Shown here: positions 875 to 42,511 of the stretch, piece after piece
How positions within the stretch are numbered: the first letter of the stretch is position 1
Layout of the letters: each line of letters opens with the position of its first letter
Origin: Escherichia phage vB_EcoS_HdH2
Strand: one strand, 5' to 3'
Sequence record: NC_048748.1
Length of the DNA stretch: 64,000 bases
The notes under the pieces: generated by a model
The model's input: the letters and a program-made list of their open reading frames with translations, nothing else
Database searches by the model: none
Told to the model about the DNA's origin: nothing
Translations under genes and position numbers: made by a program

Positions 875-951
875 TGGCGCGACCGATGGGATTTGAACCC
901 ACATTCCCTCCCGTGACAGGGGAGTACCATTACCAAGCCAGCCCCGGTCGC
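875..951 (-). tRNA. tRNA-Asp (anticodon GUC)
   Basis: Reverse complement GCGACCG...CGGTCGC-G-CCA; anticodon loop CTGTCAC; T-loop GGTTCAAATCC; CCA encoded. Confidence 0.75.
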
Positions 952-960
952 ATAATTTAT

Positions 961-1146
961 TTACTCAGCTTTGAGTTTTTCAATAGCTGCATTAAGTTCT
1001 TTAAGAAACTCTTTTCGTACATTAAGACGATTGAGACTTACTAGTATATCATGTTTAAGTTCTTCGATGTATTTCTTCTCAACTTCAATATTGTTGATAG
1101 TGCTATCACGATGAACTTCTAGCTGCGCAATCACATTCTTGGACAT
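961..1146 (-). CDS. hypothetical protein (61 aa, coiled-coil-like)
   Basis: ORF between two tRNA genes; charged helical composition. Confidence 0.4.
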   Translation of the reverse strand: MSKNVIAQLEVHRDSTINNIEVEKKYIEELKHDILVSLNRLNVRKEFLKELNAAIEKLKAE

Positions 1147-1248
1147 GCTTGTTTCCTCAGTTATTAATGAAAATGGTATCTGTGGCTGAATTCGATGTCA
1201 GCAATGATAGCTGGTTGGCTACCGGTTTACTTAACTCTACACAGAATT

Positions 1249-1331
1249 TGGCGGGCCGTGTAGGATTCGAACCTACGTTGTCTTTCGACATGGATTAACA
1301 GTCCACCGCCAAACCGCTTGGCTAACGACCC
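1249..1331 (-). tRNA. tRNA with Asn anticodon GUU but a 13-nt variable arm
   Basis: Acceptor GGGTCGT/ACGGCCC, anticodon stem GTGGA/TCCAT with loop CTGTTAA, variable arm GTC-GAAA-GAC, T-arm GTAGG-TTCGAAT-CCTAC, G-CCA 3' end. Confidence 0.6.
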
Positions 1332-1483
1332 TAAATTTATATTGCTGACTAGGATTTTCACCTAGACGGAGTTAGCACCGTAGCGTGTAGCGGCATACCT
1401 CTCCAAACCGTGCCTCATCTTTCAATTACGGAGACAGTGTTCCTACGCGTGCCTGAATTGATTTAACAATTCTTTCAGCAAAT

Positions 1484-1559
1484 TGGACGACCGCATGAGA
1501 TTTGAACTCACATAAAAAGGATTTGCAATCCTTCGCCTAAGCCATTCAGCCAACGGTCG
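1484..1559 (-). tRNA. tRNA-Cys (anticodon GCA)
   Basis: Acceptor CGACCGT/GCGGTCG, anticodon loop TTGCAAA, T-loop GTTCAAATC, T-CCA end. Confidence 0.7.
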
Positions 1560-1595
1560 GTTTATCTTGTTCTGTTATGTTGCTTCTCCAGTTCA

Positions 1596-1650
1596 ATTTA
1601 TGTAATTATTATACAGAACTTTCGGAAACTAAGCAACTACATTTTTTAAG
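1596..1650 (-). promoter_or_regulatory. T5-type early promoter upstream of tRNA-Cys
   Basis: Reverse complement has TTGCTT -35 and TGTATAATAAT extended -10 followed by CATAAATTG box. Confidence 0.55.
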
Positions 1651-1901
1651 AATTTGATGCCTTTCTTTTTCTTCTTATATTTCCACGTTAATGGATTCTG
1701 TCGATTATGAACGCTTGAGATCTTCGTCTCGTCAAAGTTCTTCAATATCATGTAATCACAAGATAATTGTTCTAGTGGAATGTGATCACCGTCAAAAGCA
1801 TATACATAAGGCTGTTGACTAGCACGATAATGATAGACTTTATTAATTCTACGTTTCAGCGACTTATCCGCGCAGTAAATAAAGAAGTTTTCAGGATGCA
1901 T
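1629..1901 (-). CDS. hypothetical protein (90 aa)
   Basis: ORF in early-region orientation; no recognisable domain. Confidence 0.45.
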   Translation of the reverse strand: MHPENFFIYCADKSLKRRINKVYHYRASQQPYVYAFDGDHIPLEQLSCDYMILKNFDETKISSVHNRQNPLTWKYKKKKKGIKFLKNVVA

Positions 1902-1918
1902 CAGCAGCTCCTTTAATT

Positions 1919-1993
1919 TGGTGCACCCTGTTCGTATCGAACGAACCTCTCAAGCTCTTCAGGCAAGCGCTAATCCATCTCAGCTAAAGGTGC
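1919..1993 (-). tRNA. tRNA-Phe-like (anticodon GAA) with two U-U mismatches in the anticodon stem
   Basis: Acceptor GCACCTT/AGGGTGC, D-stem GCTG/TAGC, anticodon loop CTGAAGA, T-arm GTTCG-TTCGATA-CGAAC, A-CCA end; not in the ORF track. Confidence 0.55.
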
Positions 1994-1998
1994 AAATT

Positions 1999-2078
1999 TT
2001 GGCAAACCTACTAGGACTCGAACCTAGACCGTACGGTTTTGGAGACCGACATGCTGTCCAGTAACACTCTAGGAATGC
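1999..2078 (-). tRNA. tRNA-like (possible Trp, anticodon CCA) with non-canonical acceptor stem
   Basis: Canonical T-arm CTAGG-TTCGAGT-CCTAG and G-CCA end, candidate anticodon loop CTCCAAA, but no clean 7-bp acceptor pairing could be drawn. Confidence 0.3.
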
Positions 2079-2084
2079 AGAAAT

Positions 2085-2161
2085 TGGCGTCCTGTGCGGG
2101 GATCGAACCCGCAAATCCTACCTTGAAAGGGTAGTGACTTTACCAGTTTGTCTAACAGGAC
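2085..2161 (-). tRNA. tRNA-Glu (anticodon UUC)
   Basis: Acceptor GTCCTGT/ACAGGAC, anticodon stem-loop CTACC-CTTTCAA-GGTAG, T-loop GGTTCGATCC, G-CCA end. Confidence 0.75.
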
Positions 2162-2168
2162 TTAAATT

Positions 2169-2259
2169 TGGTGTTGGATGATGGAGTCGAACCACCCGAG
2201 ACCCTTCCGAGTCGGCAGATTTACAGTCTGCTTCGCTACCTCTACGATACTAATCCAAC
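2169..2259 (-). tRNA. tRNA-Tyr (anticodon GUA), type II with long variable arm
   Basis: Acceptor GTTGGAT/ATCCAAC, anticodon stem-loop GCAGA-CTGTAAA-TCTGC, long variable arm, T-loop GGTTCGACTCC, A-CCA end. Confidence 0.7.
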
Positions 2260-2314
2260 ATATTTAAAAGTATTCAAATACTAGTTTAAACACTTTTAAA
2301 TATGTTTCCGAATT

Positions 2315-2360
2315 AGATAACTATTATACCAAGTTTTAAGGCACTGAGCAAGTCAAATTT
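2315..2360 (-). promoter_or_regulatory. early promoter upstream of tRNA-Tyr, overlapping a 12-bp-stem hairpin
   Basis: Reverse complement has TTGACTTGCT -35 and TGGTATAATAG -10; inverted repeat GCACTGAGCAAG...CTTGCTCAGTGC at about 2341-2380 just after the stop of the 2388-2663 gene. Confidence 0.5.
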
Positions 2361-2387
2361 TAAAGAACTTGCTCAGTGCTGTATTAG

Positions 2388-2663
2388 TTAGTCGAACTTA
2401 GGAGTGACAGTTAAGGAGAACGGAAGTTCGAAAACTTCTTCGCCCTCATTACTAACGGTAACTACACGACCTTTAAGTTCAGACATTAAAATATCAATAT
2501 CAGCTTTTGCATCTGGAGCCATGCCAGCTTCAATACATTTAGCTTTAACTTCCGGTAAAAGCTCTACGTTATAGAGATAGAGCCACTCAATCTCACCTTC
2601 CCAGTCTTCCCAGGATTTGCAGATTGCACTTTCAATACCAGTTGCTACAACACGATTTTGCAT
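2388..2663 (-). CDS. hypothetical protein (91 aa)
   Basis: ORF with GAAGGAG RBS and upstream early promoter (2684-2730). Confidence 0.55.
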   Translation of the reverse strand: MQNRVVATGIESAICKSWEDWEGEIEWLYLYNVELLPEVKAKCIEAGMAPDAKADIDILMSELKGRVVTVSNEGEEVFELPFSLTVTPKFD

Positions 2664-2753
2664 TCGTTAACTCCTTCATCAATTTATACAACTATTATAT
2701 CAGAAATTTAAAGCAAAAGGCAAGTACATTTTTAAAAATTCTGTTTGGAGGAG

Positions 2754-2960
2754 CTAAACTCCAGATTCTTCAGCTAAGTCTAGACTAATAAGAGTTATAG
2801 CCATAATTGCTGCACCGTGTTCTTTTTCTCCGGTGTTTTTAGCAGAGTCTATAATATCCTTAATCTGTTCGTAATAACTTTTTACTTCTTGTTCAATGCC
2901 TGCCTCGGCTATCATGCCTTTAGCCATGAATCGTTGCATGGTAATTTCAGGATTAGCCAT
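2754..2960 (-). CDS. hypothetical protein (68 aa)
   Basis: ORF in operon orientation; start overlaps the stop of an upstream small ORF (ATGGCTAA). Confidence 0.45.
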   Translation of the reverse strand: MANPEITMQRFMAKGMIAEAGIEQEVKSYYEQIKDIIDSAKNTGEKEHGAAIMAITLISLDLAEESGV

Positions 2961-3120
2961 GTTGTTTCTCCAGTTTCATTTTTAATAGTTTACAGAGGAA
3001 ATCAACGTCTTCATCTGTGCCTAAGTCTCTATCCTCAAGGGTCGCCTTGAAGTTTTTCGTCAATTCCATGAGGATGACTTCCCTAGAACGACGTGTTAGC
3101 GGAGGTGGATGTCTATACAT
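2957..3120 (-). CDS. small hypothetical protein (about 54 aa), below the ORF-track threshold
   Basis: ATG at about 3118-3120 just downstream of the tRNA at 3136-3212; stop overlaps the next start. Confidence 0.35.
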
Positions 3121-3135
3121 CTTATTTCCTTAATT

Positions 3136-3212
3136 TGGTAGGGGTGGTGGGATTCGAACCCACAAAACCTGAATTTTAAGTCCAGTACCTATGCCAATTC
3201 GATTACACCCCC
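3136..3212 (-). tRNA. tRNA with anticodon UAA (Leu by anticodon) but a short 5-nt variable arm
   Basis: Acceptor GGGGGTG/CACCCCT, anticodon stem-loop CTGGA-CTTAAAA-TTCAG, T-arm GTGGG-TTCGAAT-CCCAC, A-CCA end. Confidence 0.55.
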
Positions 3213-3428
3213 GTGTAATTTAGTCAATTACTTTTGAAGCTTCAAGGTAGTCGATATAGTGTACGTTTTCTACCGTAATCATATAATCTGCCACTTTATC
3301 CATAGCTTGGGCTTCAGAGGTAGCTCTGGCTAACCTATATCCTTTTTTATATTCATCAGGGTATTCTCTATCTTGAATAAACACAACATAAACTATGTAT
3401 AATTCCACTTGTAATCCCCTAATTAAGT

Positions 3429-3506
3429 TGGTGGCTCCCCGAGGATTCGAACCTACGTACCTTCCGGTTATGAGCCGGGTGCTCATACCATATGAGCTTG
3501 AGAACC
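3429..3506 (-). tRNA. tRNA-Met/Ile-like (anticodon CAU) with imperfect T-stem
   Basis: Acceptor GGTTCTC/GGGAGCC, D-stem GCTC/GAGC, anticodon loop CTCATAA, T-loop TTCGAAT with two mismatches at the base of the T-stem, A-CCA end. Confidence 0.45.
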
Positions 3507-3512
3507 AGAATT

Positions 3513-3601
3513 TGGCGGAAGAAGTGGGAATCGAACCCACAAGGCTATATTTCAAACCGACAGATTAGCAATCTGCTGCAATACCGTTATGCTATTCTTC
3601 C
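3513..3601 (-). tRNA. tRNA-Ser (anticodon GCU), type II
   Basis: Acceptor GGAAGAA/TTCTTCC, anticodon stem-loop GCAGA-TTGCTAA-TCTGT, long variable arm, T-loop GGTTCGATTCC, G-CCA end; early promoter directly upstream (3603-3660). Confidence 0.7.
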
Positions 3602-3621
3602 GAATTTATAAATATATTATA

Positions 3622-4140
3622 TTAGAAATTTAACTTCATAGCAAGAAAATTTTTCAAGTTTTCGGTAGACATCTCATCCACATCTATAGGAGAAACAAAC
3701 CCATTTAATTGTCTAGCAAACTTTTCGCCAGCAGGATCATTATCCCCAACAGCTACCAATTTAAAAGGTAGTAATTTCAATTGCTTTAACAACGCTTTTC
3801 CGGGGGAAGAACCCAACATTGCTAGGGCAGGATAACCAGCGTTATGTAACGCAACTGCCTTAAATACAGATTCAGCAATCAATACTACTTTTTCATCTCC
3901 ATTGAGAGTTTCTAGTCCCCATACACACTGTGTAGTAGAATAAGTAAAATATTTAGCCTCAAAGGGACACTTACCATGACCTTTTGGAGCAGAAGGATTA
4001 TAAGTCTGATAGCCTCTCAACATCCCAGAGAAGTCATACAATGGGACTGTTAGCCAGCCTTCTGGGCTTAACCAGCAATGATATTTATCTGTATCAAACC
4101 CTCTAGATAAGAGATGTTCTGTTAGTTCATCAACAGTCAT
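3622..4140 (-). CDS. Toprim-domain protein (primase/topoisomerase-like fold)
   Basis: Acidic motif LIAESVFKAVAL ... VAVGDNDPAGEKFA typical of Toprim; start moved to the internal ATG (MTVDELTE) that sits behind RBS GAGAGG and the promoter at 4155-4205. Confidence 0.45.
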   Translation of the reverse strand: MTVDELTEHLLSRGFDTDKYHCWLSPEGWLTVPLYDFSGMLRGYQTYNPSAPKGHGKCPFEAKYFTYSTTQCVWGLETLNGDEKVVLIAESVFKAVALHNAGYPALAMLGSSPGKALLKQLKLLPFKLVAVGDNDPAGEKFARQLNGFVSPIDVDEMSTENLKNFLAMKLNF

Positions 4141-4313
4141 ATTAGATTCCTCTCTCAAATTTATAAATATATTATACAGAGAATTTAGCATTCAAGCAAT
4201 TGAATTTTTTAACTTTTTAGAGGAAAATCATAGGATGCTTAAGGGTAGCAGATAAGTGGTGAGTACCGAAATTTGTGACCCCACTAAAAATCTGGGGGCA
4301 ATTTTTAAAGACC

Positions 4314-4345
4314 CCTTGACATTTTCGCCGGGGTAGTGTAAAGTA
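4314..4345 (+). promoter_or_regulatory. consensus-like sigma70 promoter (TTGACA, 17-nt spacer, TAAAGT) driving the plus-strand cassette
   Basis: -35 TTGACA at 4316-4321 and -10 TAAAGT at 4339-4344; shares the 15-mer TTGACATTTTCGCCG with the promoter at 33382. Confidence 0.6.
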
Positions 4346-4406
4346 TATGTTATGGATGAGTGATCAAAGAGACACACATTTTCTATATACTAGGAGGTGT
4401 CAAAAA

Positions 4407-5396
4407 ATGACAGAAGAAGTAGCTAAGAGTCCTGAAACCGTCGCTAGCGTAGCAGCAGAACTGCATCGTCACGAGGAATCAGATAAGAAAAAGTGGGAGA
4501 AAGTCAAAGCCTACGAAGAAGAACATCGTGAACACGATGATAAAGATGAAGAAGATGACGATGATGAACATTGTCATAAATATGGAAAACATAAAATGCA
4601 AGAACCAGTAAACGTATTTACTAACGGCTTCCCTGGCATGGGTGCATTCCCAGCTAACGCAAGTGCTTTCGGTGGAGAAGGTATGGGCCTATTCGGAGCT
4701 ATCCTAATCGGTGCTCTATTAACAGGCGGATTTGGTGGTTTCGGTGGATTCGGTGGACGTGGTGTAGTTAGTGATGGTACCGCAGTTGATGCAGTACTTC
4801 AGAACCAAGATACCGCTAGTATTCTAGCAGCTATTAACACTACTCGTACAGAAGCTAATCAGGGTACTGGAGCTGTTTTAAGCGCAGTTAACAATGGTTT
4901 TAGCCAGACATCCCAAAACCAGAGCCGTGATACTCAGTCTGTACTAACTACGATCTATGGTACAGGTGCTAATCTGTCTAATCAGATCTGCCAGGAAACT
5001 CGCAACGTTATTCAGGGTCAGTTCGATCTTTCTCGCCAGATTGATCAATCTTTCGCAGCTAACCAGATAGCTCGTGCACAAGATAAGTTTGATTCTGCAC
5101 AGATCGCTTTCCAGCAGACTTTACAAACTAATAACCAGTTTGCCGCTGTTCAGGCTCAGATGTGTGCTAACCAGAACTCTCTGGAACGTCAGATCGCTGA
5201 ATGTTGCTGTGAACTTCAGACTGCGATCGCTGGTGTAACTACTGCGCGTATCCAGGATGAGTTAGACGCATGTCGCCTACGTGAAGCAATCGCTGCGGGT
5301 AGCGGTGCTAACGGTCAGGTAATTAATCAAATCGCTTTAAGTCTTGGTGCTATCACTCAGACTCTGGCTGGTCTGCAGGCTAAACTGCCGGCTTAA
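4407..5396 (+). CDS. hypothetical membrane-anchored protein: acidic His-rich N-terminus, Gly-rich TM helix, Q/N-rich C-terminal domain with CCC motif
   Basis: ORF with AGGAGGTG RBS before ATG 4407; hydrophobic segment GLFGAILIGALLTGGFGGFGGFGG; codon usage resembles highly expressed genes; opposite strand to its neighbours. Confidence 0.55.
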   Translation: MTEEVAKSPETVASVAAELHRHEESDKKKWEKVKAYEEEHREHDDKDEEDDDDEHCHKYGKHKMQEPVNVFTNGFPGMGAFPANASAFGGEGMGLFGAILIGALLTGGFGGFGGFGGRGVVSDGTAVDAVLQNQDTASILAAINTTRTEANQGTGAVLSAVNNGFSQTSQNQSRDTQSVLTTIYGTGANLSNQICQETRNVIQGQFDLSRQIDQSFAANQIARAQDKFDSAQIAFQQTLQTNNQFAAVQAQMCANQNSLERQIAECCCELQTAIAGVTTARIQDELDACRLREAIAAGSGANGQVINQIALSLGAITQTLAGLQAKLPA

Positions 5397-5417
5397 TATT
5401 AAGGGGAGGAGCCCATT

Positions 5418-5837
5418 ATGAGTAAATATGGTTTTGTAAATAACGGACTTAATCAAAGTATGGGCTCCCAGCAGCCCATTCCGGGTCTGGATAATCCCTA
5501 CTTACAACAGTTGCAACAGCGTTTAGCAGAAGCGCAACAGATGCAGCAACAACTCCAGCAAAACCCTGGAAGTGTGAGTCCTATGCAAATGATGCAGCAA
5601 ATGAGTGGGCAGTCGCAAATGCCTCAACAAATGCAGCAACAGATGCCGCAGCAGCAGCAAGTTCAGCAACAAACCCATCAACCGCAGGTTTCTGCGGAAG
5701 GACAGGCAGTACTAGCCCTTTTCGAAGACTTCGCAAAGACAGAGGATGGGAAGCAGCTTGTATCACTTATGGGTAAGTTTAATAGCTTCTGCCAAAGCCA
5801 AATTGCAAAAGCTCAAAATAGCGGTGATAACTCCTAA
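5418..5837 (+). CDS. hypothetical glutamine-rich low-complexity protein (139 aa)
   Basis: ORF with GGGGAGGAG RBS; extremely Q-rich (QQMQQQLQQ, MPQQMQQQMPQQQQVQQQ). Confidence 0.5.
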   Translation: MSKYGFVNNGLNQSMGSQQPIPGLDNPYLQQLQQRLAEAQQMQQQLQQNPGSVSPMQMMQQMSGQSQMPQQMQQQMPQQQQVQQQTHQPQVSAEGQAVLALFEDFAKTEDGKQLVSLMGKFNSFCQSQIAKAQNSGDNS

Positions 5838-5846
5838 GGAGGAATT

Positions 5847-6041
5847 ATGTGTTGCAGAAAATCTGTTTCGTGCTGCCCAATGCCTGTAGCACGTTGTTGC
5901 TCTCCAGCAATGTTTACGCAAATACCGGCGTTCAATCCGTTTGCCTTTAAGCCTACTCTTATCCTGCCCCCTAGAGTAGATTTTCAGTCAAGATTGGCCT
6001 CCCGTATGGGTGGTTGCTGTAACAAGAGTATATGGTTCTAA
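5847..6041 (+). CDS. hypothetical Cys-rich small protein (64 aa) with four CC doublets
   Basis: ORF with AGGAGG RBS directly after the previous gene; CC at residues 2-3, 9-10, 17-18 and 57-58; followed by terminators. Confidence 0.4.
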   Translation: MCCRKSVSCCPMPVARCCSPAMFTQIPAFNPFAFKPTLILPPRVDFQSRLASRMGGCCNKSIWF

Positions 6042-6056
6042 AGAACCAAACAATAA

Positions 6057-6090
6057 AGCCCCTAGTCGAAAGACTTAGGGGCTTTTTCTT
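6057..6090 (+). terminator. rho-independent terminator ending the plus-strand cassette
   Basis: Hairpin AGCCCCTAGTC-GAAA-GACTTAGGGGCT followed by TTTTT. Confidence 0.65.
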
Positions 6091-6107
6091 TTGCCTTAAA
6101 ATACAGA

Positions 6108-6140
6108 AAAGCCCGCGCTCTCGGAGAAAACGCGGGCTTA
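6108..6140 (-). terminator. rho-independent terminator after the SPFH gene (hairpin shared with the plus-strand cassette end)
   Basis: Inverted repeat AAGCCCGCG...CGCGGGCTT; on the minus strand it is followed by TTTTCTGTATTTT. Confidence 0.55.
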
Positions 6141-6162
6141 GTTCGAAGATTACGTGTAACTA

Positions 6163-7110
6163 TTACTTGTTACGCATATCCATGATCATTTGACCATCAT
6201 AGCCAGTGCCAACTACAGTCTGAGGTACACCACCTTGATATTTCTGAGCACGAATCATCTCAACTTCCAGTTGTTTCCAACGAATCATCTCAGGAGTAAT
6301 GGTACGTTGTAGTGCGGCGTTAGCTTCAGCTTCTTTCTTAGCTGCGTACAGTTTAGCATCTGCGTCACGTTCATTAGCAATAGCTTGGTTATTGCGAGCT
6401 TCACGATCTGCTTCTGCTTGTTTAACTTTTTGCTGTGCTTCCTGTTCAACGCGGGCAAGTTCAGCTTTCGCAGCGTTAACTTGCTCTTCACGAACTTTGG
6501 TATTCTGTACCTGTTCCATGATTACCGGTGGCAAAGTAATATCCTGAAGAAACACCTGCTTAACTGTGTAACCATATGGGCGTGCATACTCTTCAACTTC
6601 CTGTTGAATTGCAGTTTGCAATTGAGCCTGAATTTTAGCATCAAACAAATCTTGTGCTTTAGGTACAGACTTACCAAACTCACGAATAGTAGACAGTAAT
6701 TTTTCAGTTACATATTTGTCTAACGCTTGATCCTGAGTACCTGCATTAATACGGTTAATCGGTGCCTTAGAACCATCAAACTGCAACATAACAGTCAGGT
6801 CAACAGTGGATTTAAACTTATCCTGACTAGGGACCTGAAGTTTATCTAATTTTAGAGCAATATCTTTAGTACTAAAAGTATCGAAAGAAGCAAAAGGATT
6901 TACAATATGAAAGCCGGGTAATACTGGGCTAGGGTCAACCTTACCCAGGAAGGTCTGGGTTTTAACAGTACCGTCTTGAACAACAGTGTAAGAGTTAAGA
7001 GCCAGAACTAAACCTACCAAACCAACTGCAGCCCCAATACCCCAACGTTTGATATTACGCATTAATTTTTGCTCATAAGTCAGTTCTTTAGTGTTTTTAG
7101 TAGCAAACAT
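6163..7110 (-). CDS. SPFH/band-7 family membrane protein (HflC/stomatin-like)
   Basis: N-terminal TM helix (IGAAVGLVGLVLAL), SPFH-like core (YTVVQDGTVKTQTFLGKV), charged Ala/Glu/Gln-rich coiled-coil tail; RBS AAAGGAAAT; directly downstream of tRNA-Arg. Confidence 0.6.
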   Translation of the reverse strand: MFATKNTKELTYEQKLMRNIKRWGIGAAVGLVGLVLALNSYTVVQDGTVKTQTFLGKVDPSPVLPGFHIVNPFASFDTFSTKDIALKLDKLQVPSQDKFKSTVDLTVMLQFDGSKAPINRINAGTQDQALDKYVTEKLLSTIREFGKSVPKAQDLFDAKIQAQLQTAIQQEVEEYARPYGYTVKQVFLQDITLPPVIMEQVQNTKVREEQVNAAKAELARVEQEAQQKVKQAEADREARNNQAIANERDADAKLYAAKKEAEANAALQRTITPEMIRWKQLEVEMIRAQKYQGGVPQTVVGTGYDGQMIMDMRNK

Positions 7111-7144
7111 ATATTTCCTTTATTTTAGTTACAGTTAATAAAAT

Positions 7145-7219
7145 TGGCCGAGGTGACAGGATTCGAACCTGCATAAAGGAATTTAGAAGACTCCTGCCTC
7201 TCCCTTAGACTACACCCCG
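7145..7219 (-). tRNA. tRNA-Arg (anticodon UCU)
   Basis: Acceptor CGGGGTG/CACCTCG, anticodon stem-loop GGAGT-CTTCTAA-ATTCC, T-arm GCAGG-TTCGAAT-CCTGT, G-CCA end. Confidence 0.7.
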
Positions 7220-7229
7220 TTTAAGTATT

Positions 7230-8010
7230 TTTAAGAACTCTCGTAAAAACTCTTAAAAATACAGACGATACCGGGAGAGTCATAAGTCTCACTCATTAAG
7301 TATTTCAAGACAAAATACGGTAACGTCTATTATTTTCCAGTTTAAGTCAGGGTGACTTAGTGGTTATGTCCTGCGGTATATTGAGGACTCGGTTAGGCTT
7401 GGGGTCATGACTTCCCACCTTTTGCTGCTACTCAACAGGAGTTATCGCGAATTACCTGTGCTATTGTGCACCATTAGTGACATCTCTCATGTCAGCATTT
7501 CCCACTTTGTGGATAGCTTGAAAAACTACTCCGATATGGAGAAAGAACTTCACTACCCTAGAATACCTTCTAAAGTTCTTCTTTAGCCTGGACATAGTTA
7601 AATCGTAATAAAACTATTCAGCAGACTGGTTGGTTAGTCTGGAACCAACTACCGCGTGGTTTAGGCAGTGCGCAACTAACCTCGGAAGCTTTTACGTTAA
7701 AAGCATCAGTTATCCAGTTCTTACCGACCGTAGGATTCGAACCTACATCTTCCACCAGTTACGGCTTGATAATACCAATTATACTAGGACGGCAGTGTTA
7801 CTACATAAGTGATTTCCACACCCCACTATTTATAAATTAGAGAAGAGTTTAGGGGAGAGGTTTCAGACGCCTCATTTTACACGTTCTAGCCACTAACCGG
7901 GATTGCCGCCCCCTGTGTACTAGTTTTACAACTAACCCACCGACTCTATTCAACGAATCTTAGTGCTCGACGCATCTTACATTAAGACAAGTTCAGCGTA
8001 ATCGGCTCGC
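7230..8010 (-). ncRNA. promoter-driven non-coding transcript region; candidate stable RNA(s), includes a tRNA-like 3' domain at about 7720-7795
   Basis: About 780 nt without a credible ORF, lying between the early promoter at 8020-8070 and tRNA-Arg; contains canonical T-arm GTAGG-TTCGAAT-CCTAC with acceptor-like GCCGTCC/GGTCGGT but no anticodon stem, plus several local hairpins. Confidence 0.3.
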
Positions 8011-8019
8011 TGTTCCCTA

Positions 8020-8070
8020 ATTTATGAATATATTATACAGAATTTAAAGGCATTTAGCAAATAAATTTTT
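8020..8070 (-). promoter_or_regulatory. T5-type early promoter firing into the 7230-8010 non-coding region
   Basis: Reverse complement has TTTGCTA -35, TGTATAATATAT extended -10 and CATAAATT box. Confidence 0.55.
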
Positions 8071-8512
8071 AATTAAATTCGCCAGCAATCTGAGCAGCAG
8101 TACCACCATCATAACGCCCAGAAAATTCTTCCTTAATCGCTTTCATCAGCATACCTTTTGTAATTCCAGGGTTTAGCTTAACTAATTCTGCAAAGTATTT
8201 ACGAATCTCAGTATCAGATAACTGAGGAGGCAGATACTCCTGCAACCACTTAGTTAGAATGTATTCATACTGAGCAGACTGCAAGCTATAACTATCAAGA
8301 TCTTGACCATGAAGTTTAGCTTTCATCTGGTTAATGCTTTTTAGTTGAGCTTTGAGATAAGACACAAATTGTTCAGAAGTGATGAAATCTTTATCAATAC
8401 GCTGAAGATCCCCGATTATGGTCTGATAGCTTTTAGCGACTTCTTTATCAGAACCATTAAACTTAGAATCCTGCAAAGCTCTACGCAAAACATCTAAAAT
8501 ATTCTCTTCCAT
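8069..8512 (-). CDS. GatB/YqeY-domain protein
   Basis: YqeY-like signature (YLPPQLSD, GRYDGGTAAQI); start overlaps the stop of the upstream small ORF (TAATG). Confidence 0.55.
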   Translation of the reverse strand: MEENILDVLRRALQDSKFNGSDKEVAKSYQTIIGDLQRIDKDFITSEQFVSYLKAQLKSINQMKAKLHGQDLDSYSLQSAQYEYILTKWLQEYLPPQLSDTEIRKYFAELVKLNPGITKGMLMKAIKEEFSGRYDGGTAAQIAGEFN

Positions 8513-8750: not shown

Positions 8751-9200
8751 TTAAGTTTTAGTGACAACAGGTTTATAGAATGTATGTCCCTTAATCTTAG
8801 TTGTTTTCTTAAATTTCTTTGTCCAGTAAGGTTTATCTTTACCACTATGGAAGTATAGTGCTCCATGTGTAGGATCTTGTGGTAAATCAACGTAGTATAT
8901 CACTCTAGCTAAATTCTTAGCAGTTTGCCAAGCCTCATCAGTTTTATCAACTTTTGGTCTCTTAGATACCCAAGAGAACTGGTTAGACTGATATACTACT
9001 TTACAGTAGGAATCTGGGAATTTACCGGAGTTTACACGGTTTTTAGTAACATGTGCAATCGCTGTCATTCCCTTTATGCCCTCACCACGACTTTCGAAAT
9101 AGATATTTTTAGCAATGCAATCTATTTCTTTTGCATCGTGCGATGCCTGACTACTAAAGCTGAAGGTAAGGGCAGCTACTAAAAGCAAAGCTGCCTTCAT
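8751..9200 (-). CDS. secreted cell-wall hydrolase, SleB/CwlJ-like (Hydrolase_2 family); candidate lysis or entry enzyme
   Basis: Signal-peptide-like N-terminus (MKAALLLVAALTFSFSSQA) and family motif FESRGE...AIAHVTKNR; start set at second ATG behind GGCAGGAG RBS. Confidence 0.5.
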   Translation of the reverse strand: MKAALLLVAALTFSFSSQASHDAKEIDCIAKNIYFESRGEGIKGMTAIAHVTKNRVNSGKFPDSYCKVVYQSNQFSWVSKRPKVDKTDEAWQTAKNLARVIYYVDLPQDPTHGALYFHSGKDKPYWTKKFKKTTKIKGHTFYKPVVTKT

Positions 9201-9205
9201 TCTTT

Positions 9206-9523
9206 TTACTCCTGCCAATCATATTCAACACGATTGGGATTTTCTTTATACCCTAAGTCAAGCAAATCATTACGCATACTTTGCTTAGCTACTGGGTTCG
9301 AGGTTACTAGTACCACTTTCTTTGGTCTCTGCCCAAATTCTAAGAGTAAACGAAGAATTTGATAACCTTCCATACCATCTACAGCCAAGTCATTATCCAT
9401 ATAAACGAAATGGCCTGTGGTATCAGTTTTATTCAGAAACTCTACAGCGGCTTCTGGGGTTCGAATGATAATGTCCATTCCGTGAAGATTACGCACATCA
9501 TCAATCAAAATATGAAAAGTCAT
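9206..9523 (-). CDS. hypothetical protein (105 aa), possibly a CheY-like receiver fold
   Basis: ORF behind the promoter at 9541-9595; acidic pocket-like motif DNDLAVDGMEGY; assignment weak. Confidence 0.4.
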   Translation of the reverse strand: MTFHILIDDVRNLHGMDIIIRTPEAAVEFLNKTDTTGHFVYMDNDLAVDGMEGYQILRLLLEFGQRPKKVVLVTSNPVAKQSMRNDLLDLGYKENPNRVEYDWQE

Positions 9524-38104: not shown

Positions 38105-40672
38105 TTGAAAATCGCAGTAGTTGATAAAGCTCTAAATAATACTCGTTATGATAAACATTTCCAGCTATACGGCGAGGAAGTTGATGTATTCCATATGTGT
38201 AACGAGAAGTTATCTGGTCGTTTGCTTAAAAAGCACATTACTATTGGAACACCAGAAAACCCATTTGATCCGAATGATTATGATTTTGTTATACTAGTAG
38301 GTGCTGAACCTTTCCTGTACTTTGCAGGTAAGAAAGGTATTGGTGATTATACCGGTAAACGTGTAGAGTATAATGGATATGCTAACTGGATTGCGAGTAT
38401 CAGCCCAGCCCAGTTACACTTTAAACCTGAAATGAAACCAGTTTTTGATGCAACAGTAGAGAATATCCACGATATTATCAATGGTCGTGAGAAGATTGCA
38501 AAAGCTGGTGATTACCGTCCTATTACTGACCCTGATGAGGCAGAAGAATATATCAAGATGGTGTATAATATGGTTATCGGACCTGTCGCATTCGACTCCG
38601 AAACCTCAGCACTATACTGTCGAGATGGTTATCTGCTTGGTGTTTCTATGTCTCACCAAGAGTATCAGGGTGTATATATCGATTCTGATTGTCTCACAGA
38701 GGTTGCAGTATATTATCTCCAGAAAATTCTAGATAGTGAAAACCACACTATTGTTTTTCACAACTTGAAGTTTGATATGCACTTTTATAAGTACCATCTG
38801 GGACTTACTTTTGATAAAGCACATAAAGAACGCAGGCTCCATGATACCATGTTGCAGCACTATGTTCTAGATGAACGTCGTGGTACTCATGGCTTGAAAT
38901 CTCTAGCAATGAAGTATACCGATATGGGTGACTACGACTTCGAACTAGATAAGTTCAAAGATGATTACTGCAAAGCACATAAAATCAAGAAAGAAGATTT
39001 CACCTATGATTTAATTCCATTTGATATTATGTGGCCGTATGCTGCGAAAGATACAGATGCTACCCTACGTTTACACAACTTCTTTTTACCAAAAATTGAG
39101 AAGAATGAAAAACTTTGCAGTCTGTATTACGATGTTCTAATGCCTGGTTGTGTATTCCTACAGCGTGTCGAAGATCGTGGAGTACCTATATCTATTGATC
39201 GTTTGAAAGAAGCTCAGTATCAGTTAACTCATAACCTGAATAAAGCCCGTGAGAAACTGTATACTTATCCAGAAGTTAAACAGCTAGAACAAGATCAGAA
39301 TGAAGCATTTAACCCGAATTCTGTTAAGCAACTTCGTGTTCTTCTGTTCGATTATGTTGGTTTGACTCCAACTGGTAAGTTAACGGATACTGGTGCAGAT
39401 TCTACAAACGCAGAAGCTCTGAATGAACTGGCTACGCAGCATCCGATTGCTAAAACTCTTCTAGAGATTCGTAAACTGACTAAGCTGATCTCTACTTATG
39501 TTGAGAAGATTCTACTGAGTATTGATGCAGATGGTTGCATTCGTACTGGTTTCCATGAACATATGACTACTTCTGGTCGTCTAAGTTCTTCTGGTAAACT
39601 GAACCTGCAACAGTTACCTCGTGATGAATCTATCATTAAGGGTTGTGTAGTTGCACCACCTGGATACCGTGTAATCGCATGGGACTTAACAACTGCGGAA
39701 GTTTATTATGCTGCTGTTCTATCTGGTGATAGAAATATGCAACAAGTATTTATCAACATGAGAAATGAACCTGATAAATACCCTGACTTCCACTCTAACA
39801 TCGCCCACATGGTATTTAAATTGCAATGTGAACCCCGTGATGTTAAAAAGTTGTTCCCAGCTCTGCGTCAGGCTGCTAAGGCAATTACCTTCGGTATTCT
39901 GTATGGCTCTGGCCCGGCTAAAGTAGCTCATTCTGTTAATGAAGCTCTTCTGGAACAGGCTGCTAAGACAGGAGAACCGTTTGTTGAATGTACTGTTGCG
40001 GATGCGAAGGACTATATCGAAACTTACTTCGGTCAGTTCCCACAGCTTAAGCGTTGGATTGATAAGTGCCACGATCAAATCAAGAATCATGGGTTTATCT
40101 ATAGTCACTTTGGTCGTAAACGTCGTCTGCATAATATCCATTCCGAAGACCGTGGCGTTCAGGGTGAAGAAATTCGTTCTGGATTTAACGCAATCATTCA
40201 GTCTGCTTCTTCTGATAGTCTCCTTTTAGGTGCTGTAGATGCAGATAATGAAATCATTTCTCTTGGTTTAGAACAAGAGATGAAGATTGTTATGCTGGTT
40301 CATGACTCCGTAGTTGCTATTGTTCGTGAGGATTTGATCGACCAATACAATGAAATCCTGATTCGTAATATTCAGAAAGACCGTGGTATCAGTATTCCTG
40401 GCTGTCCGATTGGTATTGATTCAGATTCTGAAGCTGGAGGTTCTCGTGACTATTCTTGTGGTAAGATGAAGAAACAGCACCCATCAATCGCTTGTATTGA
40501 TGATGATGAATATACTCGTTATGTCAAGGGTGTATTACTTGATGCAGATTTCGAGTATAAGAAATTAGCTGCAATGGATAAAGAGCATCCAGACCACAGC
40601 AAGTACAAGGATGATAAGTTTATTGCTGTATGCAAAGATCTGGATAACGTGAAAAGGATTCTCGGTGCTTAA
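38105..40672 (+). CDS. pol: family-A DNA polymerase with 3'-5' exonuclease domain (T5 polymerase-like, 855 aa)
   Basis: Exo motifs (FDSETS, YAAKD) and Pol A motifs (DLTTAEVY, RQAAKAITFGILYG, HDS); TTG start behind AAGAGGAG RBS; size and sequence match recalled T5 polymerase. Confidence 0.9.
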   Translation: MKIAVVDKALNNTRYDKHFQLYGEEVDVFHMCNEKLSGRLLKKHITIGTPENPFDPNDYDFVILVGAEPFLYFAGKKGIGDYTGKRVEYNGYANWIASISPAQLHFKPEMKPVFDATVENIHDIINGREKIAKAGDYRPITDPDEAEEYIKMVYNMVIGPVAFDSETSALYCRDGYLLGVSMSHQEYQGVYIDSDCLTEVAVYYLQKILDSENHTIVFHNLKFDMHFYKYHLGLTFDKAHKERRLHDTMLQHYVLDERRGTHGLKSLAMKYTDMGDYDFELDKFKDDYCKAHKIKKEDFTYDLIPFDIMWPYAAKDTDATLRLHNFFLPKIEKNEKLCSLYYDVLMPGCVFLQRVEDRGVPISIDRLKEAQYQLTHNLNKAREKLYTYPEVKQLEQDQNEAFNPNSVKQLRVLLFDYVGLTPTGKLTDTGADSTNAEALNELATQHPIAKTLLEIRKLTKLISTYVEKILLSIDADGCIRTGFHEHMTTSGRLSSSGKLNLQQLPRDESIIKGCVVAPPGYRVIAWDLTTAEVYYAAVLSGDRNMQQVFINMRNEPDKYPDFHSNIAHMVFKLQCEPRDVKKLFPALRQAAKAITFGILYGSGPAKVAHSVNEALLEQAAKTGEPFVECTVADAKDYIETYFGQFPQLKRWIDKCHDQIKNHGFIYSHFGRKRRLHNIHSEDRGVQGEEIRSGFNAIIQSASSDSLLLGAVDADNEIISLGLEQEMKIVMLVHDSVVAIVREDLIDQYNEILIRNIQKDRGISIPGCPIGIDSDSEAGGSRDYSCGKMKKQHPSIACIDDDEYTRYVKGVLLDADFEYKKLAAMDKEHPDHSKYKDDKFIAVCKDLDNVKRILGA

Positions 40673-41162
40673 TTTCAAATTGCCCGTCTATGCGTTACGG
40701 GCGTTTGTATCAATTGAGCAAGAAGGTGATTATTCCGTAATTACAACAAGATATAATAAATATGTGCTAGATAACAGGAAGTTGCCTGGCACGTTTTCTC
40801 AACGTAGGCTTATTCTATTTGAGAAACGGAAAGAATTACCATACAAGCTCTATCCTATTAGGGGTAGAATATCAATGTTGTCTCAATTAGTTGGGTCAAA
40901 GCGTAACCAATTTATAGATTCTGATGGAAATCTTATTAATTGGAAGAAAACTACGTTCTATGATGTTGTCACCTCTAAAGTTTTGCATTCAGCTAGAATT
41001 TATAATGGAAAATACCAATGCTATGTGGCTAAAGTCCCTTATCCGTTTGTATTATCCTATGTTCCAGCTTATATAAGCTATATTCTGGTAAATAATAGCC
41101 CTGTTATTTATCAAGTCCATCAAGAGGAGCCTGAAATTCCTAGACTTAGAATAAAATTATGA
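40665..41162 (+). CDS. hypothetical protein (165 aa), AT-rich codon usage
   Basis: ORF between polymerase and helicase with composition unlike its neighbours; possible inserted gene. Confidence 0.4.
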   Translation: MLNFKLPVYALRAFVSIEQEGDYSVITTRYNKYVLDNRKLPGTFSQRRLILFEKRKELPYKLYPIRGRISMLSQLVGSKRNQFIDSDGNLINWKKTTFYDVVTSKVLHSARIYNGKYQCYVAKVPYPFVLSYVPAYISYILVNNSPVIYQVHQEEPEIPRLRIKL

Positions 41163-42511
41163 AGGTTGTTATATCTAATAAAGCCTATTTCAAGCCCGAT
41201 GATGAACTTTGGGATTATTGTAGTAAGCAAACCACTTATCACATAGAGACAATGACTAGTAAATACCCTATTATGTATAAGAATAGTGGTGTTGTTGCCA
41301 AAGAGATTAAGTGGATTCCTATTACGCGTCTGGACTTACTAGATGCTAAAGGAGTAAAATACGAATTAGTCGATAAACGCACATTAGCTCCGGTAGATAT
41401 ACCAAAACCTAAGTTCAAACTGCGTGAAGAAGATCAGCTTCCAATATACGAAGAATGCGATGATACTTGTATTATTAATGGTAAGCCTGGATTTGGTAAA
41501 ACTATCCTAGCCCTTGCACTTGCGTATAAATTTGGCCAGAAAACTCTGGTAATTTGTACGAATACATCCATTCGTGAAATGTGGGCGGCAGAAGTTCGTA
41601 AATGGTTTGGGTTTGAACCAGGCATCATAGGTTCTGGGAAATACAATATCGATCCACCAATTGTAGTCAGTAATATTCAAACAGTGAATAAACATGCGAA
41701 TAATCTTTCTAAAGTATTCGGTACTGTTATAGTTGATGAAGTTCACCATTGTGTGGCTACAACTTTCACTAACTTCCTAGAAATATCATGTGCTCGCTAT
41801 AAAATTGGACTATCCGGTACACTAAAACGAAAAGATGGTTTGCAAGTTATGTTCAAAGATTTCTTTGGGTATAAAATCTTTAGTCCTCCAGTTAATAATA
41901 CTGTTGCTCCTACAATCCACAGGTACTCAGTACCAGTTGAATTGTCTGGAAACCAAAACGTACCGTGGGCATTACGTGCTAACGATGTGTATAATCATCC
42001 TGAATATCGAGAGACTATTATAAACCTAGCACATTTATATGTGAATATGGGACATAAAGTACTCATTGTAAGTGATAGAACAGAGTTAATCCAAACAGTA
42101 CTAGAAGCACTATCTCAGAGAGGAATCACAACCTATGAAATTATAGGAGCAACCCACTTAGATGACCGATTAAAAATTCAGGAAGATATAGCAAAAGGTG
42201 GGCCTTGTGTACTTGCAGCAGCTCAAAGTATCTTCTCTGAAGGTATTTCCCTTAATGAGCTGTCTTGTTTAATAATGGGAAGCCTCATTAATAATGAATC
42301 TCTCATTGAACAGCTTGCAGGCCGTGTTCAACGTATTGTCGAGGGCAAACTCGACCCTATTGTTGTAGATCTAATTATGAAAGGTGGTACTGGTCTAAGA
42401 CAGGCTTCTGGACGTATGGCAGTATATCGTAACAACGGGTGGAAAACTATTACCATGACTCCTGAGAAAGCAGTTCAATTAGCTAAAATTGCATTTGGCA
42501 ACAGCTCATAA
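41159..42511 (+). CDS. SF2 DExH-box helicase (T5 D10-like)
   Basis: Walker A GKPGFGKT, DExH VDEVHH, helicase C-terminal motifs (QLAGRVQR). Confidence 0.65.
   Translation: MKVVISNKAYFKPDDELWDYCSKQTTYHIETMTSKYPIMYKNSGVVAKEIKWIPITRLDLLDAKGVKYELVDKRTLAPVDIPKPKFKLREEDQLPIYEECDDTCIINGKPGFGKTILALALAYKFGQKTLVICTNTSIREMWAAEVRKWFGFEPGIIGSGKYNIDPPIVVSNIQTVNKHANNLSKVFGTVIVDEVHHCVATTFTNFLEISCARYKIGLSGTLKRKDGLQVMFKDFFGYKIFSPPVNNTVAPTIHRYSVPVELSGNQNVPWALRANDVYNHPEYRETIINLAHLYVNMGHKVLIVSDRTELIQTVLEALSQRGITTYEIIGATHLDDRLKIQEDIAKGGPCVLAAAQSIFSEGISLNELSCLIMGSLINNESLIEQLAGRVQRIVEGKLDPIVVDLIMKGGTGLRQASGRMAVYRNNGWKTITMTPEKAVQLAKIAFGNSS

Follow-up and report, generated by a model that had tools for sequence, protein, structure and literature searches.

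The genome of Escherichia phage vB_EcoS_HdH2 (record NC_048748.1), a T5-like phage (Demerecviridae), carries a compact cassette of three plus-strand genes in a region whose other genes lie on the minus strand. Our analysis of a 64,000-nucleotide stretch of this genome (hereafter the window, to which coordinates refer unless another record or contig is named) suggests that an old mobile module, present in several unrelated lineages of tailed phages, is represented in the T5 lineage by this cassette, and that the cassette is a moron-type accessory operon encoding a probably membrane-anchored rod and two small partner proteins. We put the probability of this explanation as a whole at roughly 0.6. 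The original prediction for this DNA had described a moron, or autonomous accessory module. The cassette has its own promoter and its own terminator, is cleanly present or absent among T5-like phages, and recurs in unrelated phages: on each of these tested points the moron reading is supported. The elements of the locus are as follows.

4184-6100, plus strand: the indel unit, as delimited by the junction alignment with phage AKFV33
4305-4344, plus strand: sigma70-type promoter, made up of an A/T tract (AATTTTTAAAG), TTGACA, a 17-nt spacer and TAAAGT; equivalent to P12 of T5
4345-4406, plus strand: 5' leader with the Shine-Dalgarno sequence AGGAGG at 4393-4398; kept in T5-like phages
4407-5396, plus strand: gene 1, 329 amino acids; equivalent to T5.077; PHROG 8119
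5418-5837, plus strand: gene 2, 139 amino acids; equivalent to T5.078; PHROG 7894
5847-6041, plus strand: gene 3, 64 amino acids; equivalent to AAS77125 in T5; no PHROG
6055-6093, plus strand: intrinsic terminator that closes the cassette, with its hairpin at 6055-6085 and a U-run after it; folding free energy -22.2 kcal/mol, z -4.8
6109-6139, minus strand: terminator of the neighbouring SPFH gene and not part of the cassette; its U-run is on the minus strand, and it remains in cassette-less AKFV33

The cassette is a clean natural presence/absence unit among T5-like phages. Comparison of the locus across T5-like genomes, which the original prediction had proposed, revealed a 1.9-kb presence/absence polymorphism. 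Phage AKFV33, a T5-like phage that lacks the cassette, aligns solely to window positions 3400-4183 and 6101-7300, and the two aligned blocks overlap by 10 bp at the junction. At the edges of the indel we found a 10-nt direct repeat with one mismatch, ATACAGAGAA (4174-4183) and ATACAGAAAA (6101-6110). The flanks likewise lie about 1.9 kb closer together in HildyBeyeler, phC11, EH4, JLBYU43 and Eps7-type phages, as they do in AKFV33. When window 3622-7110 was used as the query, the whole stretch was present in 214 of 457 matching phage records; window 4200-6200 is 97% identical to Salmonella phage vB_Sen_I1, fp01, SPC35 and many others. The cassette is also missing from T5 st0, a viable strain: the T5 st0 record places its deletion junction between tRNA-Asp and T5.081, and by alignment the strain is without everything equivalent to window ~978-8478, the cassette included. 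Because it is deleted in this viable strain, we consider the cassette dispensable for lytic growth.

The same three genes occur in other phages. Homologues of gene 1, at 34-45% identity, each precede a gene 2 homologue, which is followed by a short ORF (open reading frame) that begins MC(C/G) and contains CC doublets. This trio was found in the following carriers outside the T5-like phages that are close to the window.

Pseudomonas phage KPP23 (locus L004) and its relative RSP: gene trio
Contig L005, a divergent T5-like contig: gene trio
Contig L006, an N4-like contig with a virion RNA polymerase (vRNAP) gene: gene trio
Contigs L031 and L032, lambdoid: trio inverted between the gene for antiterminator Q and the holin, lysozyme and Rz genes
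Contig L034, GC-rich: trio directly after the endolysin and Rz/Rz1 genes

Across these lineages the module proteins are 25-46% identical, and the GC content of the cassette (0.45-0.58) tracks that of the host phage genome in each one. Since its composition follows each genome, the acquisitions appear to be old rather than recent transfers. The cassette is opposed to its neighbours not only in T5-like phages but also in L005, L006, L031 and L032. Trio carriers include both virulent and temperate phages, with hosts from Enterobacteria to Pseudomonas. The order of the trio and its invariant cysteines are kept in at least five unrelated lineages, which suggests strong selection for a common function.

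Outside the T5-like phages the module has a fourth member. A small divergent ORF for a zinc-ribbon protein is the immediate upstream neighbour of gene 1 at each of the five non-T5 loci (L006, L031, L032, L034 and KPP23):

L006, 5911-5756, minus strand: zinc-ribbon ORF
L031, 4917-4744, minus strand: zinc-ribbon ORF
L032, 4919-4716, minus strand: zinc-ribbon ORF
L034, 3914-3759, minus strand: zinc-ribbon ORF
L004 (KPP23), 4412-4266, minus strand: zinc-ribbon ORF

The pattern common to these proteins is C-x2-CG...C-x2-CG.(W/S)F...C.P.C, followed by a basic tail; they give only weak matches to the NinG N-terminal zinc finger and to generic zinc-ribbon Pfam models. The ORF does not occur in T5-like phages, which have a strong sigma70 promoter in its place, and the zinc-ribbon protein is probably the module's regulator. 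The KPP23 record (AB910392) has ORF072 and ORF075 annotated out of frame relative to gene 3 (5936-6118) and the zinc-ribbon ORF (4266-4412).

Expression signals of the cassette in the window are those of an independent transcription unit. The near-consensus sigma70 promoter that had been proposed is present at 4316-4344 (TTGACA, 17 nt, TAAAGT), matches the consensus at 10 of 12 positions, and is kept in distant T5-like phages. Both hexamers are identical, and the upstream A/T tract is kept, in T5, in L027 (the most divergent T5-like locus compared) and in the distant contig L005; the proteins of L005 are only ~45% identical to those of the window, yet its promoter hexamers are unchanged. Promoter-like matches are not enriched in the region overall, with 6 found against 7.8 expected. 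The three plus-strand ORFs were confirmed where they had been placed, each with a GGAGG-type Shine-Dalgarno sequence, and the flanking genes and tRNAs all lie on the minus strand, as had been claimed. Position 4407 is the likely start of gene 1, because another in-frame ATG, at 4347, precedes the expected transcript start by about 5 bases (the -10 element ends at 4344). Gene 1 also uses codons of the highly expressed type, in agreement with the original prediction: its fraction of E. coli-optimal codons (Fop) is 0.67, against a median of 0.49 for the 39 long ORFs of the window, which places it in the top five. The codon adaptation of genes 2 and 3 is ordinary. No Rfam family matched the leader or the 3' end of the cassette.

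Closure of the cassette by two terminator hairpins had also been claimed, and here the first hairpin (6055-6085) stood and the second (6109-6139) did not. The first is flanked by an A-tract upstream and a U-tract downstream and is thus bidirectional; it is conserved, with changes in the stem, in L027 and L005, and in KPP23 a hairpin terminator lies ~40 bases past the end of gene 3. The second has its U-run on the minus strand and is retained in cassette-less phages, and we therefore assign it to the convergent SPFH gene. The T5 record (AY543070) already carries 'promoter P12' upstream and an 'efficient bidirectional rho-independent transcription terminator' downstream of the trio. The promoter and terminator of the cassette are thus real features that have been in GenBank since 2004. 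The genes themselves are T5.077, T5.078 and an unnamed coding sequence, AAS77125 (equivalent to T5.079), with all three products labelled hypothetical. The same record places a 'major DNA single-chain interruption' at 39746-39747, between both terminators, with the nick consensus Pu-GCGC. A conserved GCGC (window ~6115-6118) falls within the second hairpin, so that the 3' edge of the cassette adjoins a T5 nick site.

The product of gene 1 has a modular architecture, in which the following segments can be distinguished.

4440-4541, plus strand: N-terminal helix, AAELxRHExxDKK (residues 12-45), predicted by AlphaFold2 (AF2) with local confidence (pLDDT) of 70-85
4653-4769, plus strand: MQEPVNVFTNG motif, Gly-rich hydrophobic segment and conserved Arg (residues 83-121); predicted membrane anchor
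4812-5381, plus strand: predicted continuous helix of ~190 residues, ~28 nm (residues 136-325), from the AF2 model
5202-5210, plus strand: CCC motif (C266-C268)

The acidic, His-rich N-terminus, the Gly-rich hydrophobic stretch, the Q/N-rich composition and the CCC motif described in the original prediction were all confirmed by composition and hydropathy, and the protein has a net charge of -17. Of the seven lineages in which genes 2 and 3 are also present, six keep the N-terminal helix and one, L034, does not. Residues 94-112, the core of the hydrophobic segment, reach 1.72 on a 19-residue Kyte-Doolittle window. Throughout the family an acidic residue precedes the segment and a conserved Arg or Lys follows it, and its C-terminal flank is more positive than its N-terminal flank in 52 of 64 family members. 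Gene 1 is most likely anchored in the inner membrane via this glycine-zipper-like segment, to judge from its sequence. In the wider family, short members have their N-terminus exactly at the counterpart of M83-QEPVNVF (window 4653). One possibility is an internal start at Met83 in the T5-type protein, or a modular N-terminal extension; the Shine-Dalgarno sequence ahead of Met83 (GGAAAA) looks weak.

Beyond the anchor, gene 1 is predicted to form a long rod. AF2 run on 17 close homologues gave a pLDDT of 51, which was unusable, and we therefore used an alignment of 62 sequences. With this alignment, helix 54-243 of the core was uninterrupted, and pLDDT exceeded 90 for 112 residues. Hydrophobic residues in positions 136-260 recur with a period of 3.67-3.68, that is 11/3, the signature of a hendecad repeat, and a perfect heptad zipper (I306, I309, L313, I316, L320, L323 and L327) makes up the final 22 residues. 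Given that a 190-residue helix would otherwise be solitary, we infer that the rod, ~28 nm long in the model, is an oligomeric coiled coil. Among close homologues C253, C267 and C268 are invariant and occupy hendecad core positions a, d and e; in the wider family C268 is invariant, and C266 and C267 are nearly so. On this model, the core cysteines would cross-link chains as a 'cysteine zipper' or hold a metal.

Gene 1 belongs to a wider family. An exhaustive profile search returned only 5 proteins at E <=1e-30, together with ~110 remote proteins, and every genomic context of the wider family that was examined is a phage. Many of the remote relatives share the Gly-rich segment, the Q.A.CCCE.K..I motif, or both; others are soluble and have no hydrophobic segment. 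Two remote members, gp08 of Edwardsiella phage eiAU and a Seuratvirus protein, are each encoded directly after tail-fibre genes, and those in contigs L008 and L011 lie within ~1.5 kb of endolysin genes. A Q-rich ORF past the remote homologue in L008 was considered as a gene 2 counterpart and was rejected, with an hhalign probability of 0.3%.

Gene 2 is as rich in glutamine as had been claimed (38 of 139 residues). A heptad helix at residues 28-47 is conserved, as is a C-terminal domain of ~45 residues with the pattern LFEEFAKTEDGKQLVxxxGKFxxFCQ, in which FCQ is invariant; the P/Q-rich linker between the two is variable. Several gene 2 homologues (for example those of ESCO40, EH3, UTK0010 and HMD-P5) are mislabelled 'cAMP-dependent protein kinase catalytic subunit'. 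Since there is no kinase domain and no Pfam family, this label looks like a propagated mis-annotation of a Q-rich protein.

Gene 3 encodes a basic (+7), Pro-rich protein that starts MCCRKSVSCC and is 12.5% Cys; its 8 cysteines all lie in doublets, as the proposed four CC doublets require. The original prediction had allowed that gene 3 might be a non-coding 3' untranslated region, and this doubt is set aside by evidence of purifying selection and by homologous ORFs in other lineages. The gene is intact in 16 of 16 T5-like loci compared. Against L027, its dN/dS is ~0.28 (synonymous changes at 8.5 of 42.7 sites, non-synonymous at 8.5 of 149.3), and 13 of its 24 variable sites are third codon positions. 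Homologous MCC..CC ORFs follow gene 2 in KPP23, L005, L006, L031, L032 and L034. Across lineages M1, C2, C3, C17, C18 and F46 are invariant (four Cys, five lineages), and the motifs CCP.PV.RCC, NP(A/V)F and G(G/K)CC recur; the number of cysteines (4-11) and their spacing differ between lineages. These sequence comparisons indicate that gene 3 is a real gene under purifying selection. It is rarely called: we found only three clusters in a database of 5.8 billion protein clusters, and some T5-like records, such as that of fp01, leave it uncalled. DNA identity to T5 rises along the operon, from 86% in gene 1 to 94.5% in gene 2 and 98.5% in gene 3, and the conservation of gene 3 DNA beyond its dN/dS may reflect recombination history or an extra constraint at the 3' end. 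The protein has no hydrophobic h-region, lipobox or signal peptide, and its maximum 19-residue hydropathy is 0.85. Genes 2 and 3 always accompany gene 1, and we infer that they are its cytoplasmic partners.

The claim that the three proteins belong to no recognisable family has held up. The profile and Foldseek searches named in the original prediction returned nothing characterised. Pfam, NCBIfam and PADLOC gave no match for genes 1-3, and PDB sequence profiles gave nothing meaningful for genes 1 and 2. Foldseek with the gene 1 model against PDB and BFVD found only vimentin-like long helices at E >2. The only family matches came from PHROG, where gene 1 matched PHROG 8119 (E 4.7e-203, residues 1-329) and gene 2 matched PHROG 7894 (E 3.4e-77, residues 1-139); both PHROGs are labelled 'unknown function'. 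Gene 1 did not match the Apolipoprotein family PF01442 at E up to 1, a family matched by 4 of 110 remote gene 1 relatives, and gene 3 did not match the metallothionein families of Pfam or NCBIfam. Literature searches on T5.077, T5.078, T5.079 and the protein accessions found nothing relevant, and searches on T5 transcriptomics found no data for this locus.

We propose the following sequence of events. Host RNA polymerase would start at the strong sigma70 promoter once the DNA enters the cell, and the three efficiently translated genes would be read until transcription stops at the bidirectional terminator. Gene 1, probably abundant, would present its N-terminal helix, an acidic linker and the membrane anchor, and then the ~28 nm coiled-coil rod, with C253, C267 and C268 lining the rod core and cross-linking chains or holding metal. 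Genes 2 and 3 would act as its cytoplasmic partners, and the complex would modify the envelope of the infected or lysogenic cell to the phage's benefit. A protective role at the envelope, for example in superinfection exclusion, is suggested by the accessory status of the cassette, its expected early or autonomous expression, the predicted anchor, the occurrence of temperate as well as virulent carriers, and the remote members that follow receptor-binding genes; the slot after tail-fibre genes is a typical place for exclusion genes. We regard this specific role as possible, on the doubtful side of even. A role at the envelope is in any case more likely than one in replication, virion structure or the execution of lysis.

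Several observations weigh against the proposal of a membrane-anchored rod with partners and a benefit at the envelope. The three proteins have no homology to any characterised function in the databases searched. The hydrophobic core of gene 1 is short (~11-15 residues plus Gly-rich flanks) and perhaps does not span the membrane, and the AF2 model is a monomer with a low predicted template-modelling score (pTM 0.36). Signs of topology conflict: flanking charges (weakly), soluble homologues without a signal peptide, and the lack of signal peptides in genes 2 and 3 favour a cytoplasmic rod, while the disulfide-zipper-like look of the core cysteines, together with the length and charge of the N-terminal domain, speaks for a periplasmic one. 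A putative physical contact between the gene 1 protein and the products of genes 2 and 3 is suggested by their co-occurrence alone. Among 185,579 bacterial species-representative genomes none carried a close relative, so that prophage data do not support a role in lysogenic conversion; the lambdoid version was found in no complete E. coli genome and in no named phage, and a search of IMG/VR found T5-like loci only. Exclusion itself is a guess from position and architecture.

The alternatives that survive best ascribe the cassette to lysis or to metal and thiol chemistry, and we consider both unlikely. If the cassette were associated with lysis, gene 1 would cross the periplasm as a disulfide-locked, i-spanin-like protein acting with gene 3, or would set holin timing, as an antiholin or a lysis-inhibition factor. 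The locations recall this: the module adjoins the holin gene in L031 and L032, follows the endolysin and Rz/Rz1 genes in L034, and in L008 and L011 has remote relatives no more than ~1.5 kb from endolysin genes. A 28-nm rod would fit the width of the periplasm as generally understood, and gene 3 is small and Pro-rich like Rz1. Rz has intermolecular disulfides, of which the core cysteines of gene 1 are reminiscent. However, sites next to lysis genes are also generic hot spots for morons, gene 3 has neither signal peptide nor lipobox, and the T5-like cassette, with its early-type sigma70 promoter, is located far away from the lysis genes. Phage T5 st0 and the cassette-less T5-like phages still lyse their hosts. 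T5-like phages have separate lysis genes, a holin, an endolysin and an Rz-like spanin pair being annotated elsewhere in the genome (PMC11664485), and L031, L032 and L034 have Rz-type genes of their own. We accordingly rejected a spanin, given the missing o-spanin lipobox, the spanins already present in the carriers and the dispensability of the cassette. We also rejected a holin: at 329 amino acids gene 1 exceeds holins of ~70-220 amino acids and matches no Pfam or PHROG holin model, the T5-like holin is encoded elsewhere, and L031 has a separate Phage_holin_2 gene.

Improbable to a similar degree is a cytoplasmic, membrane-tethered complex whose cysteines would bind metal (Zn, Cu or Fe-S) or act in redox chemistry, with gene 3 as a metallothionein-like ligand. 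Invariant cysteines occur in every protein of the module (C253 and CCC of gene 1, FCQ of gene 2, gene 3 and the zinc ribbon), soluble relatives without a signal peptide retain CCC, flanking charges favour a cytoplasmic C-terminal domain, and some T5-like phages have His-rich N-terminal tracts. Yet no metal-binding family was matched, the number and spacing of cysteines in gene 3 vary by lineage, and the gain for a virulent phage is not evident. The Met- and His-rich tracts, considered as a sign of metal binding, were dropped because they are not conserved beyond T5-like phages.

That gene 1 is a virion fibre or ejection protein whose Gly-rich hydrophobic segment enters the host membrane at infection in the manner of a fusion peptide is highly improbable: its rod shape would fit, as would the remote members of eiAU and a Seuratvirus, which come after tail-fibre genes on the late strand, but in T5-like phages the cassette lies in the early region, with an early-type sigma70 promoter and on the strand opposed to its neighbours, about half of the matching T5-like records have no cassette, no structural PHROG was matched, and T5 st0, a standard strain for structural work, is fully infectious without it. 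The GLFGAI...G-rich segment presumably resembles viral fusion peptides, and an N-terminal xPVV motif presumably recalls the N-terminus of the P22 tail needle; we note both as leads only.

Returning to the accessory module, we tentatively extend the proposal to a four-component phage system, a view that we hold with less than even confidence: a zinc-ribbon regulator, a membrane-tethered, cysteine-cored hendecad rod, an adaptor with a P/Q-rich linker and a CC-rich micro-protein, which together may carry out a new function at the envelope. Such a system would have spread horizontally among Demerecviridae, Schitoviridae-like phages, lambdoid phages and Pseudomonas siphoviruses, and in T5-like phages its regulator would have been replaced by a constitutive early promoter. 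Its function might, for example, be a new mechanism of superinfection exclusion or the neutralising of a membrane-associated host defence.

The surroundings of the cassette include the following genes.

3622-4191, minus strand: Toprim-only protein of 189 amino acids, equivalent to T5.076; the divergent upstream neighbour, annotated 'DNA primase'
6163-7110, minus strand: SPFH/Band-7 (HflC-like) gene, equivalent to T5.080; convergent, with an N-terminal transmembrane segment, and often annotated 'lipoprotein'
8751-9218, minus strand: SleB-type cell-wall hydrolase, equivalent to T5.083; it has a cleavable-looking signal peptide and lies apart from the main lysis cassette

Upstream, the Toprim-only protein lacks the regions with which a full primase binds zinc and interacts with the helicase, and Epseptimavirus-type relatives have a NadR-like gene in its position. 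Downstream, the SPFH gene gave no match in PADLOC. It persists in cassette-less T5-like phages and is thus not a dependent partner of the cassette; for the same reason we rejected the idea that the cassette is an NfeD-type partner of the SPFH gene. Contig L005 has a Hydrolase_2 gene 4.4 kb from its cassette. Just past tRNA-Arg the T5 record has a 719-nt 'RNAX, stable RNA with unknown functions' (40848-41566), whose equivalent in the window (~7220-7950) contains short ORFs only. The cassette sits amid phage tRNA genes both in T5-like phages (window 875-3601 and 7145-7219) and in L006 (5278-5675), where tRNA-Asn, tRNA-Gln and tRNA-Tyr lie directly upstream of the Q/N-rich cassette. This proximity may be coincidental, as variable regions gather both tRNAs and morons.

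If the four-component proposal is correct, gene 1 would be the first characterised protein of a large superfamily confined to phages, whose hallmarks are the Gly-rich anchor and the Q.A.CCCE.K motif. The operon, probably well expressed, has been called 'hypothetical' since the genome was published, even though T5 is a classical model phage. Comparable modules have repeatedly proved to be exclusion, anti-defence or host-takeover systems, and a new function at the envelope would be of considerable interest to phage biologists. The edges of the indel are now known to a precision set by the 10-bp repeat at the junction, and natural isogenic-like pairs exist. In the sources searched we found no earlier description of the apparent cross-family module of three or four genes or of the coding status that sequence comparison assigns to gene 3, nor of the putative superfamily with a core cysteine triplet or the predicted hendecad rod. 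Nothing in the databases searched offers a structural or functional precedent for this coiled-coil superfamily, which is specific to phages.

Among known systems, the cassette most readily invites comparison with the morons of lambdoid phages, such as lambda bor next to Rz and stx between Q and S. Like them, it has its own promoter and terminator and an independent orientation, it shows clean-edged presence or absence in close relatives, and in L031 and L032 it occupies the exact slot between Q and the holin gene. Unlike them, it is carried here by a strictly virulent phage, has an early-type promoter, encodes proteins unrelated to known moron products, and is a three-gene unit (four-gene outside the T5-like phages) common to several phage families. 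The likeness to Rz/Rz1 lies in a predicted inner-membrane anchor, a long cysteine-bearing coiled coil and a small, Pro-rich, Cys-containing partner, with lysis genes nearby in some lineages. In the cassette, however, the small partner lacks both lipobox and signal peptide, the predicted rod is built on hendecads and has about twice the length, a third, Q-rich protein is encoded, the carriers already have spanins, and the two systems share no sequence or profile similarity. As to the N-in/C-out topology of an i-spanin with its periplasmic coiled coil, gene 1 shows one hydrophobic segment followed by a long predicted helix; flanking charges favour the opposite orientation in the 52 of 64 members noted above.

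Two further comparisons concern the rod itself. In a study of the F protein of respiratory syncytial virus (RSV), consecutive cysteines in a coiled-coil stalk reportedly form interchain disulfide rings. In this engineered 'cysteine zipper', cysteines stabilise the trimeric protein (PMC4476739). The CCC of gene 1, which falls on hendecad positions c, d and e in our model, may be alike; unlike gene 1, the RSV F zipper is an artificial design in a secreted glycoprotein. The 11/3 periodicity of gene 1, maintained over more than 120 residues, is shared with apolipoproteins, perilipins and alpha-synuclein. Gene 1 differs from such 11-residue-repeat helices in being Q/N/S/T-rich rather than K/E-rich, in having a separate hydrophobic anchor, and in giving no match to PF01442.

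Finally, exclusion proteins (T5 Llp, T1/phi80 Cor, T4 Imm and Sp, and HK97 gp15) offer a parallel at the level of the proposed role. The known examples are single small proteins or lipoproteins, unlike a predicted 28-nm rod with two partners, and they share no sequence similarity with the cassette proteins. They are alike in that the predicted product of gene 1 would also be a small, dispensable accessory envelope protein expressed early or constitutively, and, as with cor and llp, remote members of the gene 1 family lie right after receptor-binding tail-fibre genes.

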